Origin: Vulcanisaeta sp. AZ3
GTDB lineage: Archaea; Thermoproteota; Thermoprotei; Thermoproteales; Thermocladiaceae
NCBI GenBank assembly: GCA_000960865.2
Contig: JZWU02000005.1
Coordinates: 1 to 64,000 of the forward strand
DNA length: 64,000 nucleotides
Direction of reading: 5' to 3'
Below, in pieces: positions 11,578-44,472 of this stretch. The notes beneath the pieces are model-generated. The model was not told the DNA's origin. It made no database searches and saw only the letters and a program-made list of their open reading frames with translations. Numbering within the stretch: position 1 is the stretch's first letter; every line of letters begins with the position of its first letter. The position numbers were made by a program, and so were the translations under genes.

Positions 11578-12560
11578 TCATGTAATTTTCACATGGTTAT
11601 AACTACCAAGGACCTTTAAGTAAGTGGTAACTTTATTCAACTCTCTAATAGCTTCAGTACAAATAACATCTCTTAACTGGCACTCGACTTCAAGTAGGAA
11701 ATCGTACCCCCACGGGCTCTGCCTATTGGGTTTCGAGTAAATCATTGATAAATTAAGACCTCTCTCAGCGAGGGGCCTAAGGGCATTATATAGGGCACCG
11801 GGTCTGTTGGGAATTGAGAATATGATTAGCGTTCTATCACCAACCATCGGAATGCGCTTACTGATTATTAGGAATCTCGTGTAATTAGGTCTATCTTCAA
11901 TGCCGCAAACCATGGCCTTTAAGCCATGTATCTCTGCGCCAAGCCTCGATGCTATAGCAGCCCTATTCTTAAACCCCTTTATCCTCTCTAAGGCCTCTGA
12001 GGTGGATTGTGTATATATCACTGATGCTCCGTGCCTTGTTATGAAATTCATAGCCTCGGAAATAGCATGAGGATGAGAGTATATCTCGGTTATCTCCTCC
12101 ATGGATTTCACGCAATCATTGACTATGAGACATAGATTTACCCTATACTCAACAGAGTACTTAATACCCACATCCCACTTTATCAATGAATCCATGGAAT
12201 CACCAACAACACCTGCCAAGTTATTCTCAATTGGTATTACACCAAAGCCACAATTATTATCGTAGACACACTTAACTACCTCCTCCACACTCCTCATAGG
12301 CAAATACTGCTTGCCTTCACCAAACAATCTAATTGCAACCTCATGTGAATAACTACCACTAGGTCCCAAAAACCCCACTGAATCATTAATTATATACTCA
12401 CTGAACAACCTAATTAGTATGGGTTCATGAACATTACTAATTAATTCCTTAAGCATTTCACTATCAACCAGACCACTGCTTAATACTTCCCTTAACTCAA
12501 CTAAGTTATTCTCAAGATTCTTTACCAGGTTTATTATTCTTTGAATTCCAGCTCGTTCAC
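11578..12560 (-). CDS. pheA: Prephenate dehydratase with ACT domain; promoter-proximal GTG 12560 is out of frame, first in-frame ATG is 12456
   Basis: FLGPSGSYS, PIEN, SHPHA, NYTRF and PGAL motifs. Confidence 0.88.
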
Positions 12561-14050: not shown

Positions 14051-15232
14051 TTAAGGTTGCTGTGGAGAATATTTATTGCTCATCAAATCCCTTATTATTT
14101 GCTTAATATCTCCCTCGGTAATCCTAAAACCCGCATCACCTAATTCCTTAATTCTCTCTAGTATTTTATTTACTAAGACCTCGTGGGGCTCAATGCCCAT
14201 AGACCTAAGTACGAATTCTACAGAATGCCTACCACTATGCTTACCAATCACTATTTTACGGTTCATGCCAACACTCTCTGGACTTATTGGCTCATAAGTA
14301 ATCGGGTTGGATAACACACCATGTACGTGTATTCCAGATTCGTGAGAGAAGGCATTGGCACCAACAATGGCCTTATTCGGCGGCACTGGTATTTTAAACA
14401 ACCTAGATACCAAATCAGAGACTTCCTTTATCTTCTCGAACTTAATTCCAACGTTATAGTTTAACAGGAATTTCACGGCAGCTGCAATCTCCTCAAGTGC
14501 CGCATTACCAGCTCTCTCCCCAACACCGTTTATTGTACCATGCACTTGATCAGCCCCAGCCTCTATAGCTGTCACGCTATTGGCAACTGCCATTCCGAAG
14601 TCATCATGACAATGAACACTCAATAAATAATCACCCTTAACATTCTCCTTGACAAAACTAACAAGCCAAGCCATCTTACTCGGCCACATAACGCCCACCG
14701 TGTCGGCAATATCCAACCTATCAGCACCTGCATTAACAACCTCCTGGAAAACCCTTACGAGGAACTGCGGATCACTCCTAGTTGCATCCTCTGCACTAAA
14801 CTCCACAATCATACCATGAGACTTTGCGTATTCTACAGCTTCTACGGCGGTACTAACCACCTTCTCCCTATTCATCTTCAACTTATACTTCATGTGTATG
14901 TCTGATGTAGCTATGAAGATGTGTACAGCTCCAACGTCAGCATCAATGACCCTATTGATATCCTCTCTTCTCGTCCTAGCCAGAGCTATGACCTCGGTAT
15001 CAGTGACCTCCCTCGCTATATCCTTAACGGCCCTAAACTCACCATCGCTTACTATTGGAAAGCCAGCCTCTATTGAGTCAACACCCAACTCTTCAAGCTT
15101 AAGGGCTATGGCCAATTTATCCTCAGACCTCAGGGCAACACCAGGAGTTTGTTCGCCATCCCTTAGTGTCGTATCTAAGAACCTAACGTACCTACCACCT
15201 ACCGAACCCTGAACTACATTTTCCTGAGCAAT
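14051..15232 (-). CDS. leuA: 2-isopropylmalate synthase, short form without C-terminal regulatory domain; frame begins at ATT 15232
   Basis: DTTLRDGEQTPG lies upstream of the ORF-track start (15115); HCHDD, GERAGN and HESGIH motifs; adjacent to ilv/leu genes. Confidence 0.88.
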   Translation of the reverse strand: MAQENVVQGSVGGRYVRFLDTTLRDGEQTPGVALRSEDKLAIALKLEELGVDSIEAGFPIVSDGEFRAVKDIAREVTDTEVIALARTRREDINRVIDADVGAVHIFIATSDIHMKYKLKMNREKVVSTAVEAVEYAKSHGMIVEFSAEDATRSDPQFLVRVFQEVVNAGADRLDIADTVGVMWPSKMAWLVSFVKENVKGDYLLSVHCHDDFGMAVANSVTAIEAGADQVHGTINGVGERAGNAALEEIAAAVKFLLNYNVGIKFEKIKEVSDLVSRLFKIPVPPNKAIVGANAFSHESGIHVHGVLSNPITYEPISPESVGMNRKIVIGKHSGRHSVEFVLRSMGIEPHEVLVNKILERIKELGDAGFRITEGDIKQIIRDLMSNKYSPQQP

Positions 15233-15373
15233 CTATCCCACCAAACCTTAACTAAAAATACTCTATTTAAGCTTTATTCTAAGAGAAATATATTAATGAG
15301 AATCACGATAATAAACAATATATTTAGTTATGATGAAGAAAAACTTAAATATTCTATAGTTGACTTCCACCTG

Positions 15374-19872: not shown

Positions 19873-20373
19873 TTAAACTCTGTGACTCTTGAGGTACTCA
19901 AGTAATCCACCGCTTTTTAAGATCTCGAGGGCCATTCCAGTGATGGGTCTAGTCTTGAGGACTTTCTGTCCATTGTTAATTATTACCTCACCACTCTCTA
20001 CATTTATTGATGCGTAATCACCTTCATTCACTTCCCTACTTATTCCCGGTACTGCCAGAGCAGGTAAGCCATTGTTTATTGCATTCCTATAGAAAATTCT
20101 TGCAAAGGACTCTGCAAGCACTGCCTTGACACCAGCAGCTTTTAATGCTATGGCTGCTTGTTCACGGCTTGAGCCCATGCCGAATGCTCTACCAGCTACT
20201 AAAATTACACCTTTACTTGCCTTCTCGTAGAAGTGTGGGTCTAGGGGCTCCATTGCATGCTTAGCCAATGTAGCTGGGTCCGTGTAGACTAAGTACCTGG
20301 CTGGTATTATTATGTCTGTATCTACATTATCACCAACTTTAATCACAGGACCCTCGACAGTAAATTGAGGCAT
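19873..20373 (-). CDS. leuD: 3-isopropylmalate dehydratase/homoaconitase small subunit
   Basis: [18 protein letters not shown] and SFARIFYRN motifs. Confidence 0.92.
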
Positions 20374-21049
20374 AACACATTATGTATATATGCCTTTTAA
20401 AGATTACACTGTATATATCGATATGGTCCTAATTAATTCAATATAATACAAATATGCGATCTAAAAAATCAATATAAGTTCTTGATATAATTGTAAGGGA
20501 TTATGTATAAGCAGCTAATATATTTTTATATTAAAATGATGGTATTATGAATAGCATTACTCCTCAGTGATGAATTACATAGAGAACGGTCGATAAACTC
20601 AGATCCCTAAAAAGGTATTTTTAACCATGCCTTGAGTAAATTATTGTAAAGTCATTAATAGTGTAACGATAGAGAGTTTGAATATAGCTACTAAATGTAC
20701 TCTGTCTGAATTTAATAAAGTGAAACTTATAGACCACGTTACTAAATGGAGTTAGAAATATGAAGAGAACAGTTAAGGCTTTCATAGAGTTTTCTAACGA
20801 AAGAACTAAGAGCTATCCATGGATATCACAATGACAAGTATCACAGGACTCTTCGATAATTTTAATTGCTACACACCTAAAATTTAATAATTATAATATT
20901 ACAAGGTAAGCAATAGAATTGGTATGGAGTATTCATAATTGATTAATAATTATTAATTTTGATATTTATGCTATGATCGTGAATATATATTTTTCTGGGA
21001 AAGGTAAATTTTAAATAGGTAGTATGCACGTGCCTATATAGGTGACTGG

Positions 21050-22176
21050 ATGGAAATGGAAACCAAGTACTAGATAGAGGCCTTTGGATTTCAAAGGTTG
21101 GGGGTTCCCTACTAACGAGAAAATCAACTCTTAGAACTATAAGCAGTGTTATTGGGAGAGATCTAAAGCCTGGCAGTAGATTAATCCTTGTGGTTTCAGC
21201 AATGAAGGGGGTAACGGACTTACTTATCAGAGCTCTAGATGAGCATAATCCTGCATTTATAGATGAAGCTGTGTCGATGTATGTTGATGAGGCGTTATAT
21301 CTTGAGTTAAAATCATATGCTAAGTTTCTGGAGTTTGTTAATGAGGAATTACGTAGGTTTGTGAATATAGATGAACCCTGGGTTAAGGATCATACTATTG
21401 TTCATGGAGAGTTATTGTCATCATTGCTTGTTGAGGGTATCTTAAATGATATAATTGGTGTTAGGGCTAAGGCGGTTTATGAACCTGGAATAGTGGTTAA
21501 GCAAGAGTGGGGTAATGCAAGTGTTATTCATGAGCTGAGTAATACCTTTGTTCGTGAAAGGTATGATGGATTGATTAGGAAGTACGATGTTGTAGTTGTA
21601 CCTGGATTCTTGGGTGTGACGTTGGATGGTAGGTATGCATCGTTGGGTAGGGGCGGCAGTGATTACACAGCTTCGTTGCTTGCTAACTATCTGAGTGCCT
21701 CAGGGCTGACGTTCTATACAGACAGTGGCGGTCTACTTAGTGGTGATCCTAAGGTTGTGAATGATCCTGTGCTCATTAGGGAGGTTTGTTATGAGGAGGC
21801 TTATGCGGCTGCGATGGTTGGCGCTAAGAAGTTCCATCCAAGGACCTTTGAACCATTACTTAATAGTAATGTTAGGATGTTAATAACAAGCCCGTGGCTT
21901 GATGTCGGTACTTATATAACTAATAAGTGTATTGACACACCTAAAATAGTTAGTCTTAGCGGTGATGGAAGGTCTCTTAAGGTTTCTGTGGTGGGTTATA
22001 ATGCAGCTAAGAGGGAAGATGTATTCAGTGAGGTTTATACTATTGCATCCTCGTACGGTATAAACAGTATTACGCATGATAACGATCACGTACTATCCAT
22101 GCCTGTGGATGATTATAAAATAGCATTAACCCTCGTTAGAGATATACATAGGTGGGTGAGAAAATGGATAAGTTGA
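21050..22176 (+). CDS. Aspartate kinase; ATG 21050 is out of frame and the kinase frame is reached by -1
   Basis: KVGGS (21094-21108) lies upstream of the first in-frame canonical start (21190); [15 protein letters not shown] and DP motifs. Confidence 0.88.
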
Positions 22177-23183
22177 GGGTTTCAATACTTGGTTCTACGG
22201 GATTGGTTGGTCAGTGGATGGTTAAGTTGCTTGAGAATCACCCATTTATAGAGGTTGTGAAGCTCTCAGCATCGCCTGGCAAGGTTGGTCATAAGTATGG
22301 TGATTCTGTTCATTGGTTCATACCTGGAGACATACCTGAATATGCTAAGGACGTAATCCTATCCTCAACGGAACCCTCTGACCATAAGGATGTTGATATC
22401 GTCCTCTCAGCATTACCCAATGAGATTGCTGGCTCAATTGAAAATAAGTTATTGAAAGAGAGCATTAATGTAATATCTAACGCATCGCCTGAGAGATTAA
22501 GTCCAAGGATTCCATTAATAAACCCAGAGGTTAATTGGGAGCACTTACTGGTGCTTAAGGATGTTAAGGGTAATTGGCTTGTTAAGAATCCTAATTGCAC
22601 AGCAACGATAATATCCATGCCCCTAAAGCCAATCCGAGACTTAATCAAGGACCTCTACATAGTAACGCTGCAATCGGTAAGTGGGGCGGGTTATTTAGGC
22701 GTATCGTATCTAGCAATTGATGGTAATGTTATACCATTCATAAAGGGTGAGGAGGAAAAAATCGATGTAGAGTTAAATAAGATGCTTGGTAGGCAATTCC
22801 AAGATCGCTATGATCCATGGGGTAAGCCCATTAGTGTCACTGCCACTAGAGTGCCTGTTAAGTATGGGCATATGGCTGTAATATATGCCACACTTAATGA
22901 CCAGGTAAGTCAAGAACAAATAATCAATAAGTTGAGGAACTTCAAATCATTACCGCAAGAGGCTGAGTTACCGATGGCGCCGAAAGATCCGATTAAGGTA
23001 TTAGATAGAGTTGATGCACCACAGCCCGCCAGGGACTTAGATCCAATGGCAGTAAGTGTTGGTAGGATTTCTATCAGAGGCGATGTACTAAGGATGGTGA
23101 TTTTAGGTGATAATCTTGTTCGTGGTGCTGCAGGCGTCACAATACTTACACTAGAAACCATGAGGCATCTAAATTTAATTTAA
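22164..23183 (+). CDS. asd: Aspartate-semialdehyde dehydrogenase
   Basis: GSTGLVG, NPNCT, QSVSGAG and NLVRGAAG motifs. Confidence 0.93.
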
Positions 23184-24256: not shown

Positions 24257-25491
24257 ATGGGGATTGAAATGGAAACCAGGAATTAATAAGAAGGTCTCTA
24301 GACAAGTATGTACTTAAGTGCCCAAGGTGTGGCTATGAGGTTGAGGCAAATCCGTTCATAATGAGGTGCCCAAGGTGTGGTGAATTACTTGATGCTGAGT
24401 TAATAGCCGAAATGATTCATATTAGGTGGGATAGGCTGCACGGTAGGGGTGTTTGGAGATATGAGAGATTGCTTCCTAGATTAAATAGTGTGGTCACTAT
24501 GGGTGAAGGATCAACACCATTAATAAGACTCAAACAATTCTCTAATGCTTATGTTAAGTTTGAGGGGCTGAATCCAACGGGTTCCTTTAAGGATAGAGGA
24601 ATGACAATTGGTACATCATTAGCTTTAGCAATAGGTGCAAGAGGGATAATTGTGGCGTCTACAGGGAATACTGCAGCCTCGGCGGCAGCTTATTCAGCTA
24701 GGGCAGGCCTTGAGTGCTTGGTAGTGCTTCCTAGGGGTGGTGTGGCTAGGGGTAAGTTGGCTCAGTCTATGTTGCATAATGCACGTATATTAGAGGTTAC
24801 TGGGACCTTCGATAATGCCTTGGAGTATGTGCTGGATTCCGTGTTGAGTAATGGTGCTGTTAATGGTGTTAATTACTATCCACTTAACTCAATAAATCCA
24901 TGGAGACTAGAGGGTCAGAAAACAATTGCATATGAAATCGTTGAGGAGCTTGGTGTCCCTGACTTTGTGTTTGTTCCTGTGGGTAATGGCGGTAATATTT
25001 ACGCTATTTGGAAGGGATTTAGAGAATTGGTGGAGCTTGGTGTGATCGATCGTGTACCAAGGATGATGGGGGTGCAGGCTGAGGGGGCTAATCCAATGGT
25101 TAGGTATTGGAGAGGGCTTGGTGAGGCTAAGATTGAGAATCCGAGGACTGTAGCCTCAGCAATAAGGATTGGCAAACCAATTAATTGGTTTAGAGCCTTC
25201 AGGGCCGTTAAGTATAGTAATGGCACCTTCCTGGAGGTTAGCGATGAAGAGATATTAAATGCCCAGAGAGTACTTGGTAGGGAGGGTATAGGTGTTGAGC
25301 CGGCTAGTGCAGCATCGCTGGCAGGTTACTTAAGGGCGTTAAAAGACGGTCTTGTGGATAGGAATGATAAAGTGGTGCTAATAGCCACAGGGCATGCTCT
25401 TAAAGATCCCGATATACTAACTATGGGGAATGCGCAGTTTATGAGGGTGTCATCAATCAATGAATTAAGAACGTTAATTGCCACTAAGTAA
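24257..25491 (+). CDS. thrC: Threonine synthase; ATG 24257/24269 are out of frame and the enzyme frame is reached by -1
   Basis: NPTGSFKDRG, ASTGNT, PVGNGGN and EPASA motifs; the first CPRC of the Zn ribbon (24319-24330) precedes the first in-frame ATG. Confidence 0.9.
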
Positions 25492-43258: not shown

Positions 43259-44472
43259 TTAGTTCTTATGCCTAGCCCTAAATGCTGTTAATGAGTGCAT
43301 TGTGTGCATTTTAATGAAGCCTCTAGCTTCCTCCTCGCTTGGGTACCAACCACCTATGTAATCTACTAACTCCTTACTGTAGCTTGCATATGGGCTTTCC
43401 CTACCTACTATTGTTAATCCACCAAGCACCCTAATCCTCACTTTACCGCTAATCCACTTATTCATTGACCTAATAAGCTGCTCTAACTCTTCACGCAATG
43501 GCTCATGCCAAAGCCCTTGATAAACAAGATCTGTCCAGGTCTGATCCACAATCTTCTTAAACCTATACTCCAATGGTGTATAGATTAACTTTTCAAGATC
43601 CTTGTGAACCTCTATTAGCGTTAAGGCAGCAGGCGCTTCATAGACCTCCCTGGACTTAAAGCCCACAACTCTATTCTCCACATGGTCAATCCTACCAAAA
43701 CCGTGCATACCAACGATTCTATTTAACGTGGTTATTATGCTCACAAGATCCATCCTCTCGCCGTTAACAGCTATGGGTAAGCCCTCCTTGAACTCAATCT
43801 CTAGATTTAGTGGTTCATGTACCTTCTCTAGGGGGATCGTCCATTTGAATGCATCTTCAGGTACTTCCACAGATGGATCGTCTATCTCATGGCCCTCAAT
43901 GCTCCTCGACCATAGATTATCATCTATACTGAACCTGCTGTGTATGTTGGGTATTGGTATGTTGTTCCTTCTGGCATACTCAATCTCACTGGCCCTATCC
44001 ATATTCCAGATCTTGGCTGGTTCTATGATCATGAGATCAGGTGCTAATGCCATGAGGGCTTCATTAAATCTAACCTGGTCATTACCCTTAGACGTGGAGC
44101 CGTGGGCCACTGCATCGCAACCCTCCCTTTTAGCAACTTCAACAATTCTCTCAGCGATTAATGGTCTAGCTAATGCTGTACCTAATGGATACTTATCCTC
44201 GTAGAGAGCATTTGCCATTATCGCCGTGGCTACTGGGCCGTTGGCAAAGTCTTGCCTCGCATCTATAGTAATGTGCTTCGTAGCACCAGCTTTGTAAGCT
44301 CTTCTCTCAATGTCCTCAAAATCATCATCCTGACCAACATTGACCGTGACTGTTATAACCTCTGCATTAAACTTACTCCTTAACCAATGAATTGCAACTG
44401 TGGTGTCTAAACCTCCTGAGAATGCTAAGACAATTTTACCTGGCTTTTTGTGCTCCGGTTTAAATTATTCAC
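43259..44472 (-). CDS. argG: Argininosuccinate synthase; GTG 44472 is out of frame and the enzyme frame is reached by -1
   Basis: KIVLAFSGGLDT PP-loop lies upstream of the first in-frame start (44218); HGSTSKGNDQVRF and KSREVYEAP motifs. Confidence 0.92.

Follow-up and report, generated by a model that had tools for sequence, protein, structure and literature searches.

Bacterial release factor 2 (RF2, encoded by prfB) is autoregulated through a short first open reading frame (ORF) with a CUU codon on which the P-site tRNA can re-pair in a +1 shift, an A-site codon that reports shortage of the gene's own product, and a Shine–Dalgarno (SD)-like element 3 nt upstream of the slip codon. In attenuation of the thrL and pheL type, a leader ORF carries a run of end-product codons, and the speed of the ribosome there sets downstream expression. 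Here we analyse a 64,000-nt stretch of the archaeon Vulcanisaeta sp. AZ3 (GenBank assembly GCA_000960865.2, contig JZWU02000005.1, positions 1 to 64,000 of the forward strand; hereafter the window), in which an aspartokinase gene, ask, lies in the −1 frame of a seven-codon leader and overlaps the aspartate-semialdehyde dehydrogenase gene asd. We propose from sequence analysis, with a probability of roughly 0.7, that expression of this ask–asd operon depends on a programmed −1 ribosomal frameshift, which doubles as a sensor.

The arrangement shares with RF2 a short first ORF, a re-pairable P-site codon, an A-site codon that would report shortage of the gene's own product and an upstream SD-like element. 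It differs in that the shift would be −1 rather than +1, the slip codon is GAA or GGG instead of CUU, the SD-like box stands 7–8 nt upstream of the slip codon, the sensor is a sense codon in ask and in three of the further genes described below (thrC, pheA and the MetRS gene), and the hosts are archaea. Like attenuation it uses end-product codons in a leader ORF, but each amino acid has a single sensor codon instead of several in a row, no terminator/antiterminator pair is present, and the enzyme, in another frame, is fused to the leader and not started on its own. Hungry-codon leftward frameshifting, reportedly described by Gallant and Lindsley in 1992 from starvation experiments in E. coli, is a device that works alike, although the known system is an error provoked in test constructs. 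Canonical −1 programmed ribosomal frameshifting (PRF), as in dnaX and in fucA1 of Saccharolobus solfataricus, likewise requires a −1 shift for the full protein, and from fucA1 archaeal ribosomes are said to be capable of such a shift; by contrast, the present site has no tandem-slippery heptamer, its A-site tRNA cannot re-pair (ACC to AAC, AUG to AAU), and it lies at codons 2–6 of the mRNA instead of inside a long ORF. The yeast Ty1 +1 frameshift at CUU AGG C, as presented in a recoding review (Atkins et al. 2016, PMC5009743), is similar in that a slow A-site codon lets the P-site tRNA slip without a large RNA structure, and differs in its +1 direction and in sensing a constitutively rare tRNA rather than the product of the regulated gene.

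The aspartokinase leader

The features of the leader and of the two genes behind it are the following.

21004–21017, + strand: BRE/TATA-like box GTAAATTTTAAATA, a conserved block in an alignment of 19 orthologous upstream regions
21040–21045, + strand: Shine–Dalgarno-like AGGTGA (GGTGA at 21041–45), separated from the leader ATG by 4 nt and from the first GAA by 7 nt
21050–21073, + strand: leader ORF ATG GAA ATG GAA ACC AAG TAC TAG, 7 codons and a stop
21052–21058, + strand: putative shift site 1, G GAA AUG, with a P-site Glu codon and an A-site Met codon
21058–21064, + strand: putative shift site 2, G GAA ACC, with a P-site Glu codon and an A-site Thr codon
21046–22176, + strand: aspartokinase-like body in the −1 frame, open throughout; entry would be at AAT 21055 or AAC 21061
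22152–23183, + strand: asd, aspartate-semialdehyde dehydrogenase (TIGR00978, 398.5 bits against a cut-off of 301.2), overlapping the end of ask

Relative to ATG 21050 the kinase body is in the −1 frame (codons at 21049 + 3n), and this frame is limited upstream by the TGA at 21043–45, which is part of AGGTGA. It begins with CTG 21046, and its first ATG, GTG or TTG is GTG 21190, at residue 49 and 33 codons beyond the essential K-x-G-G-S motif. The translation from 21046 matches Pfam AA_kinase (PF00696) over residues 14–282 with 119.6 bits against a cut-off of 24.9 (E 2e-34), and K-V-G-G-S starts at residue 17 of the frame (K codon 21094). As kinase starts we rejected GTG 21190, which would remove the beginning of the AA_kinase domain including K-V-G-G-S, and both CTG 21046 and ATT 21088, neither of which is conserved. 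From TTTAAATA to ATG 21050 there are 40 nt, and TATA-to-ATG distances peak genome-wide at 30–32; the TATA-like box thus predicts an ask mRNA 5′ end about 8–13 nt before the leader ATG. An earlier sequence-only reading of this DNA had described the GGTGA box, the leader at 21050–21073, the −1 kinase frame and the landmarks TGA 21043, CTG 21046 and GTG 21190, all of which hold, and its two G-GAA-X sites are confirmed as G21052 GAA ATG and G21058 GAA ACC.

In the mechanism that we propose, ribosomes would initiate on AUG 21050, which lies 4 nt past AGGUGA and has no other start codon beside it near the predicted 5′ end of the mRNA. After one codon (site 1) or three (site 2), peptidyl-tRNA-Glu (anticodon UUC) would sit on GAA in the P site while the A site exposes AUG (Met) or ACC (Thr). 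Where the matching aminoacyl-tRNA arrives quickly, translation would terminate at UAG 21071 after seven codons and no kinase would be made; where it is scarce, tRNA-Glu would re-pair one base back on GGA (G–C, G·U and A–U), placing AAU or AAC (Asn) in the A site, and the kinase frame would be read through ask and, by the overlap, into asd. Aspartokinase and Asd feed threonine and methionine, and with sites in tandem a shortage of either amino acid would raise the enzymes, as in an OR gate. The genome has a gene for tRNA-Glu(UUC). Judged on paper, re-pairing from G GAA to GGA makes two Watson–Crick pairs and a middle G·U, and from G GGG to GGG it is perfect; in GC-rich sister genera, where G GGG replaces G GAA, tRNA-Gly would thus re-pair perfectly. 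The new A-site codon would be AAU, AAC, AUU or AUA. The slip itself, its −1 rather than +2 direction, the re-pairing of the tRNA and the response to starvation are what we infer from these features. Translational coupling of asd to ask is probable, judging by the overlap.

To place the leader among its relatives, we searched 41 related genomes, assigned to families f1–f3 and genera g1–g8 with the window in f1 and g1, and found the kinase in 40. Nine of the 12 same-genus (g1) ask loci are treated as good. The other three (L005, L010 and L016) were set aside; their assemblies (G005, G009 and G002) consist of few contigs, yet completeness is only 81, 67 and 63%. Matches to ask, thrC, pheA, aRF1 or MetRS are split or stop-bearing in these assemblies (and partly in G003), which suggests that they hold many single-base indel errors, and with their low completeness makes frame statements from them unreliable.

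A run of 16 nt, GATGGAAATGGAAACC, is invariant in all nine good g1 orthologues. In the kinase body (353 aligned codons, nine g1 loci) no invariant run exceeds 8 nt and only 6.5% of third positions do not vary, indicating that the leader is under constraint at the nucleotide level. Of the 16 bases the frameshift model accounts for 15, as start, slip codon, sensor, slip codon and sensor. All nine loci encode the peptide MEMET[K/R/L]Y and retain the leader stop as TAG or TAA, where it overlaps a Leu codon of the kinase frame. AGGTG is kept at a fixed distance while the spacer differs (ACTGG, GTGAG, GTGGG, ACCAG or ACCCG). From about 21067 onwards changes are synonymous in the kinase frame (Arg AGA/AGG/CGG, Ser TCA/TCG/TCT/AGT, Leu CTA/TTA), showing translation of this frame from there on. 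In six of the nine orthologues the stretch from the upstream stop to the K codon is free of ATG, GTG and TTG, in the remaining three the position of such a codon varies, and no near-cognate start codon is conserved in the kinase frame among the g1 orthologues. CTG 21046, a constitutive start at which the sequence-only reading had named as the outcome that would contradict it, occurs in the window only (1/9); the others have TGA followed by GAT, CCA GAT or CCC GAT. The conservation in relatives on which that reading also depended is borne out by the g1 alignment and, beyond it, by a 25-nt degenerate pattern that matched nine metagenome stretches, all nine of which precede a K[IV]GGS reading frame in the −1 frame. 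We also rejected a +1 shift from the frame of GTG 21042 at CCC U, which is available to CCC-type orthologues only (the window has CCA A) and leaves the motif unexplained.

This distribution bears on two explanations that need no frameshift. A pseudogene or an assembly error might be suspected in a draft genome of 55 contigs (89.85% complete), but the arrangement is found in 9 of 12 g1 genomes, including the complete single-contig G004, G008 and G011, and in 9/9 metagenome contigs, and in those genomes the kinase frame is intact at 374–378 aa, so that a broken gene is hardly credible. The two frames could instead be joined in the RNA, by a small bulge-helix-bulge intron, by editing or by transcriptional slippage. 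mRNA introns are known in related archaea, and introns are present in 26 of the 43 tRNAs that aragorn predicts in the genome. Joining the frames in this way would nevertheless need an excision of 3n+2 within about 17 nt; by eye, and with no dedicated search, we saw no bulge-helix-bulge in 21045–21095 or in the folds of nine orthologues, nor a helix common to them, there is no homopolymer run on which a polymerase could slip, and the cognate sensor codons would go unexplained. We regard RNA-level joining as very unlikely.

Site 1 (G GAA AUG) is invariant in 12/12 same-genus loci and present in 4/5 loci of genus g2. In genus g5 the ask leader reads ATG GAA ACA ... TAG, with the Thr site only (4/4 loci), and G GAA ACN is found in 16/16 in-frame ask cassettes of genera g1, g2 and g5. 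Kinases of genera g3 and g4 and of family f2 have an ordinary ATG 5–6 codons before the K codon (11/11 loci). In 12 of the 14 f2 genomes, no more than 60 nt separate ask from thrC and its cassette upstream, suggesting that one Thr sensor may lead both genes there.

Product-matched cassettes on other genes

The same cassette, consisting of a leader start, G-GAA-NNN, a nearby stop and a body in the −1 frame, stands on ask and on four other gene families.

24257–24286, + strand: thrC leader ATG GGG ATT GAA ATG GAA ACC AGG AAT TAA, with G GAA ACC at 24271–24277
24268–25491, + strand: threonine synthase (thrC) body in the −1 frame (PALP, E 5e-72)
12534–12560, − strand: pheA leader GTG AAC GAG CTG GAA TTC AAA GAA TAA, with G GAA UUC, a Phe codon in the A site
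11581–12549, − strand: prephenate dehydratase body (PDT and ACT domains) in the −1 frame; first canonical in-frame start 31 codons after the site
Contig C30, 5200–6360 (loci L183/L216), outside the window: aRF1 (eRF1_1/2/3) in the −1 frame of the leader GTG GAC GTA CTG GAA TAA
Contig C33, 8598–10334 (loci L258/L259), outside the window: MetRS, with UG GAA AUG in a short +1-frame leader

The thrC cassette is the second copy found by a genome-wide motif search and lies 3 kb downstream of ask. A T precedes its first GAA, which makes a TGA in the −1 frame and leaves the Thr site as the one that could work there, in keeping with the role of thrC. The first in-frame ATG of thrC (24361) comes after the first CxxC of the zinc ribbon, and in a thrC paralogue on contig C6 the same CxxC stands five residues behind a normal ATG. 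Across two families the Thr sensor is present in 29 of 30 thrC loci, as G GAA ACN in 19 (f1) and as G GGG ACN in 10 (the GC-rich f2), and the single miss is a partial match in G005. Two f3 genomes have thrC without the cassette and with an in-frame GTG instead, and among the matches listed, all 27 archaeal thrC genes examined outside the order have an ordinary in-frame start before the zinc ribbon. For pheA the site rule finds the Phe sensor in 24 of 30 loci (G GAA UUY in 13 of f1, G GGG UUY in 11 of f2); of the remaining loci, four from g3 and g4 have C CAA UUY by eye, one from g4 lacks it and one, in G002, is out of frame.

The remaining two families are confined to f1. UG GAA UAA precedes aRF1 in 15/15 readable f1 loci and in 0/14 f2 loci, which start with an in-frame ATG or GTG; in f1 the aRF1 cassette looks like a direct functional analogue, in the −1 direction, of bacterial RF2 autoregulation. 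UG GAA AUG precedes MetRS in 15/15 readable f1 loci and 0/14 f2 loci, and its GGAAATG is invariant, including two positions that are synonymous in the main frame. The MetRS gene of the window genome also has an in-frame ATG five codons upstream, so that the shift may be optional there.

In all five families the A-site codon matches the gene's own product by sequence logic: Met and Thr for ask, Thr for thrC, Phe for pheA, Met for MetRS and a stop for aRF1. The sensor codon varies synonymously (ACC/ACA/ACG; UUU/UUC) while its amino acid is constant. We collected 99 cassettes by the site rule, a re-pairable G GAA or G GGG before the sensor, so that this part of the counts is descriptive. All 99 have an in-frame ATG, GTG or TTG 1–5 codons before the slip codon, a leader stop 0–11 codons after the sensor and the body in the −1 frame. 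In 8 of 16 ask, 12 of 29 thrC and 14 of 24 pheA cassettes, the main frame is devoid of canonical starts all the way from its upstream stop to the twelfth codon after the site. Most f1 cassettes carry a GGTGA-, GTGGA- or GTGAC-like box 7–8 nt before the slip codon, which may be the start signal of the leader, a stimulator of the dnaX or prfB type, or both.

The rule of a cognate A-site codon is the logic of RF2 autoregulation, and on it rests the proposal that the P-site tRNA slips when the A site stays empty. We consider it somewhat better than an even bet that one archaeal lineage uses a portable cassette as a general feedback sensor, slipping on slow decoding of the A-site codon. For ask, the product-matched cassettes on four other genes lend support to the idea, put forward in the sequence-only reading, that G-GAA-Met and G-GAA-Thr are shift sites sensing end products.

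A −1 shift could also be real but constitutive, giving a low fixed yield with no response to the supply of Met or Thr. Anatomy alone does not show regulation, and incidental slippage in early elongation is reportedly known from the leader of a Phe operon (Gurvich 2011). A constitutive shift gives no reason for a product-matched A-site codon in five families, however, and does not account for sensor codons that drift synonymously under a constant amino acid; we judge it unlikely.

Two further sites resemble the cassette. An MFS transporter gene (C6:17689–18942; L184/L246) has the leader ATG GTG GAT AAA CTG GAA CAC TAA, with a His codon after the GAA. CUG GAA CAC is found in four of seven g1 loci with a readable start, CGG stands for CAC in one and the site is absent in two; g2 loci have in-frame starts, and the gene lies just downstream of thrC in six relatives. 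In a Desulfurococcales metagenome-assembled genome (L107:450–630), a +1-frame ORF, ATG GTG GTT AAG CTG GAA ATC ... TAG, upstream of thrC contains G GAA AUC, an Ile codon, though an in-frame ATG follows. This ORF may be a related cassette outside the order, or may be due to chance.

Starts, folds and motif frequency

Several observations weigh against the proposed frameshift. G GAA ACC does not fit the canonical X XXY YYZ pattern, and its re-pairing requires a G·U pair in the middle. Inspection of single-sequence minimum-free-energy (MFE) folds of nine orthologous leaders revealed no conserved stimulatory structure downstream; these folds differ, and a hairpin of 5–6 bp occurs in three only. 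Under a structural filter the bare TGGAA is not enriched genome-wide, with 17 matches against 1–21 for ten control 5-mers, which is why we place weight on conservation and on the matching codons rather than on rarity of the motif. The TATA-to-leader-start distances of thrC, pheA and aRF1 are 27–28 nt, at the short edge of the genome-wide range of 27–33, so that some mRNA 5′ ends could fall inside the leader.

Starts in the main frame add to these points. An in-frame ATG or TTG stands four codons after the site in 7 of 10 g1 thrC loci, the main frame lacks a canonical start in 0/15 MetRS and 2/15 aRF1 cassettes, and the ask frame of g2, where both sites are present in 4/5 loci, has an in-frame GTG and ATG too. 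Some in-frame starts of cassette genes precede the predicted 5′ end of the mRNA, and there is no conservation of where they stand. With in-frame canonical starts on many cassette genes, the shift would not be obligatory everywhere. At the ask locus itself, the A of TGA is missing from the metagenome locus L289, giving an in-frame GTG GTG, and L005, L010 and L016 have one C fewer behind GGAAAC (CC instead of CCC just past the motif), which puts the kinase in frame with the GTG inside AGGTGA. ATGGAAATGGAAAC is present in all 12 g1 loci, with the kinase in the −1 frame in nine of them. Each of the three C-short loci is nearest to a different CCC-bearing species, and we infer that they are homopolymer errors.

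Finally, non-canonical initiation probably exists in this genome. Four genes without the cassette have a Pfam domain or a typical N terminus upstream of any ATG, GTG or TTG.

15230–15245, − strand: HMGL-like gene (homocitrate/isopropylmalate-synthase-like)
44432–44464, − strand: argG, whose domain begins 72 codons before any canonical start
Contig C40, 1729–1800: ABC ATPase gene
Contig C10, 42913–43000: TrpB2-like gene

Three of the four have GGTGG (or AGGT), 3–6 nt and then ATT, and one has a possible CTG, which suggests that ATT or CTG is used as a start codon here. For the HMGL-like gene and the ABC ATPase the signal is GGTGG, 4–5 nt and ATT. The TrpB2-like gene was rejected as a cassette gene; its leader includes a Trp codon but lacks a P-site codon that could re-pair, and a CTG start seems likelier.

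These starts are what recommends another account, in which the leader is an ordinary regulatory upstream ORF (uORF) and the kinase is made from a non-canonical start or by re-initiation, with no frameshift. Non-canonical starts seem to be used by the HMGL-like, ABC ATPase and argG genes, the ATGA at the end of several thrC leaders overlaps an in-frame ATG, and the window has ATT 21088. Yet no start-like codon is conserved, and the orthologues have GTT, GTC, GTG, ATA or ATC at the position of ATT 21088. Coding constraint in the kinase frame is evident upstream of every candidate start. A ribosome stalled on the leader would cover about 15 nt and so repress the kinase on starvation, which is the wrong sign, and the re-pairable G GAA or G GGG before the sensor (99/99 cassettes, selected by that rule) would go unexplained. 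The uORF account is accordingly improbable in our view, and we retain the −1 frameshift as the preferred explanation of the ask leader.

Other candidates were set aside. The motif as a shared protein-binding site was rejected because GGAAATGGAAAC, with at most one mismatch, occurs seven times in the genome against 11 for a reversed control; of its copies only those of ask and thrC stand at gene starts. Most matches in genome-wide cassette scans are ordinary genes with a start a few codons further on, and C12:22295 (G GAA ACT), without a Pfam family, looks non-coding.

Gene neighbourhood and biological meaning

The naming of the kinase rests on its best matches and its context, since its scores lie under the curated NCBIfam cut-offs for aspartate kinases (TIGR00657, 178 against 208.7 bits; TIGR00656, 179 against 402). 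All 24 NCBIfam matches listed for it are aspartate-kinase models, and the protein is short, at about 375 aa. Within 2 kb after ask–asd lie hom, on the other strand, and thrC. A LysX/LysY/LysJ-type cluster (LysX-type ATP-grasp, semialdehyde dehydrogenase and class-III aminotransferase) follows at 25.5–29.5 kb, a context consistent with the view of the sequence-only reading that lysine is made here by the LysW route.

Upstream, positions 20374–21003 form an unusually long AT-rich spacer (about 630 nt, GC 28–30%) between a leuD-like gene and the ask promoter. The spacer has several conserved TATA-like boxes, and at 20532–20678 C/D-box snoRNA-like Rfam matches, all below threshold. Rfam models run on 20300–21300 with E up to 10 returned six snoRNA-type matches with E 2.5–9.4, far under their gathering scores, and no terminator-like site was found in 20850–21300.

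To our knowledge, leader-peptide or attenuation-type control of amino-acid biosynthesis has not been established in archaea. We found no description of this device in the full-text literature, with subscription journals and supplements outside the scope of the search. A term search of a 2021 review on recoding in archaea (PMC8211752) gave no match to threonine, aspartokinase, Pyrobaculum or Vulcanisaeta. Autoregulatory recoding is described as absent from archaeal and eukaryotic release factors by Jeudy 2012 (PMC3521657). On trans-frame products that are functional and arise by hungry-codon frameshifting, the 2016 recoding review (Atkins et al. 2016, PMC5009743) states that "no examples are known".

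If the proposal is true, hungry-codon frameshifting would have, in the ask cassette and its counterparts on thrC and pheA, its first natural role in the control of amino-acid biosynthesis. The aRF1 cassette would be the first autoregulatory recoding of an archaeal release factor, a protein unrelated to bacterial RF2, and would be independent of that of RF2 and opposite to it in direction. It would also explain why gene callers truncate or miss the N termini of these genes. The question would be directly testable in cultured relatives with complete genomes. For these archaea, the cassette would be a minimal sensor of about 15 nt that needs no protein or RNA-structure partner and converts the charging level of one tRNA directly into enzyme synthesis, with a specificity that would be changed by the swap of a single codon.

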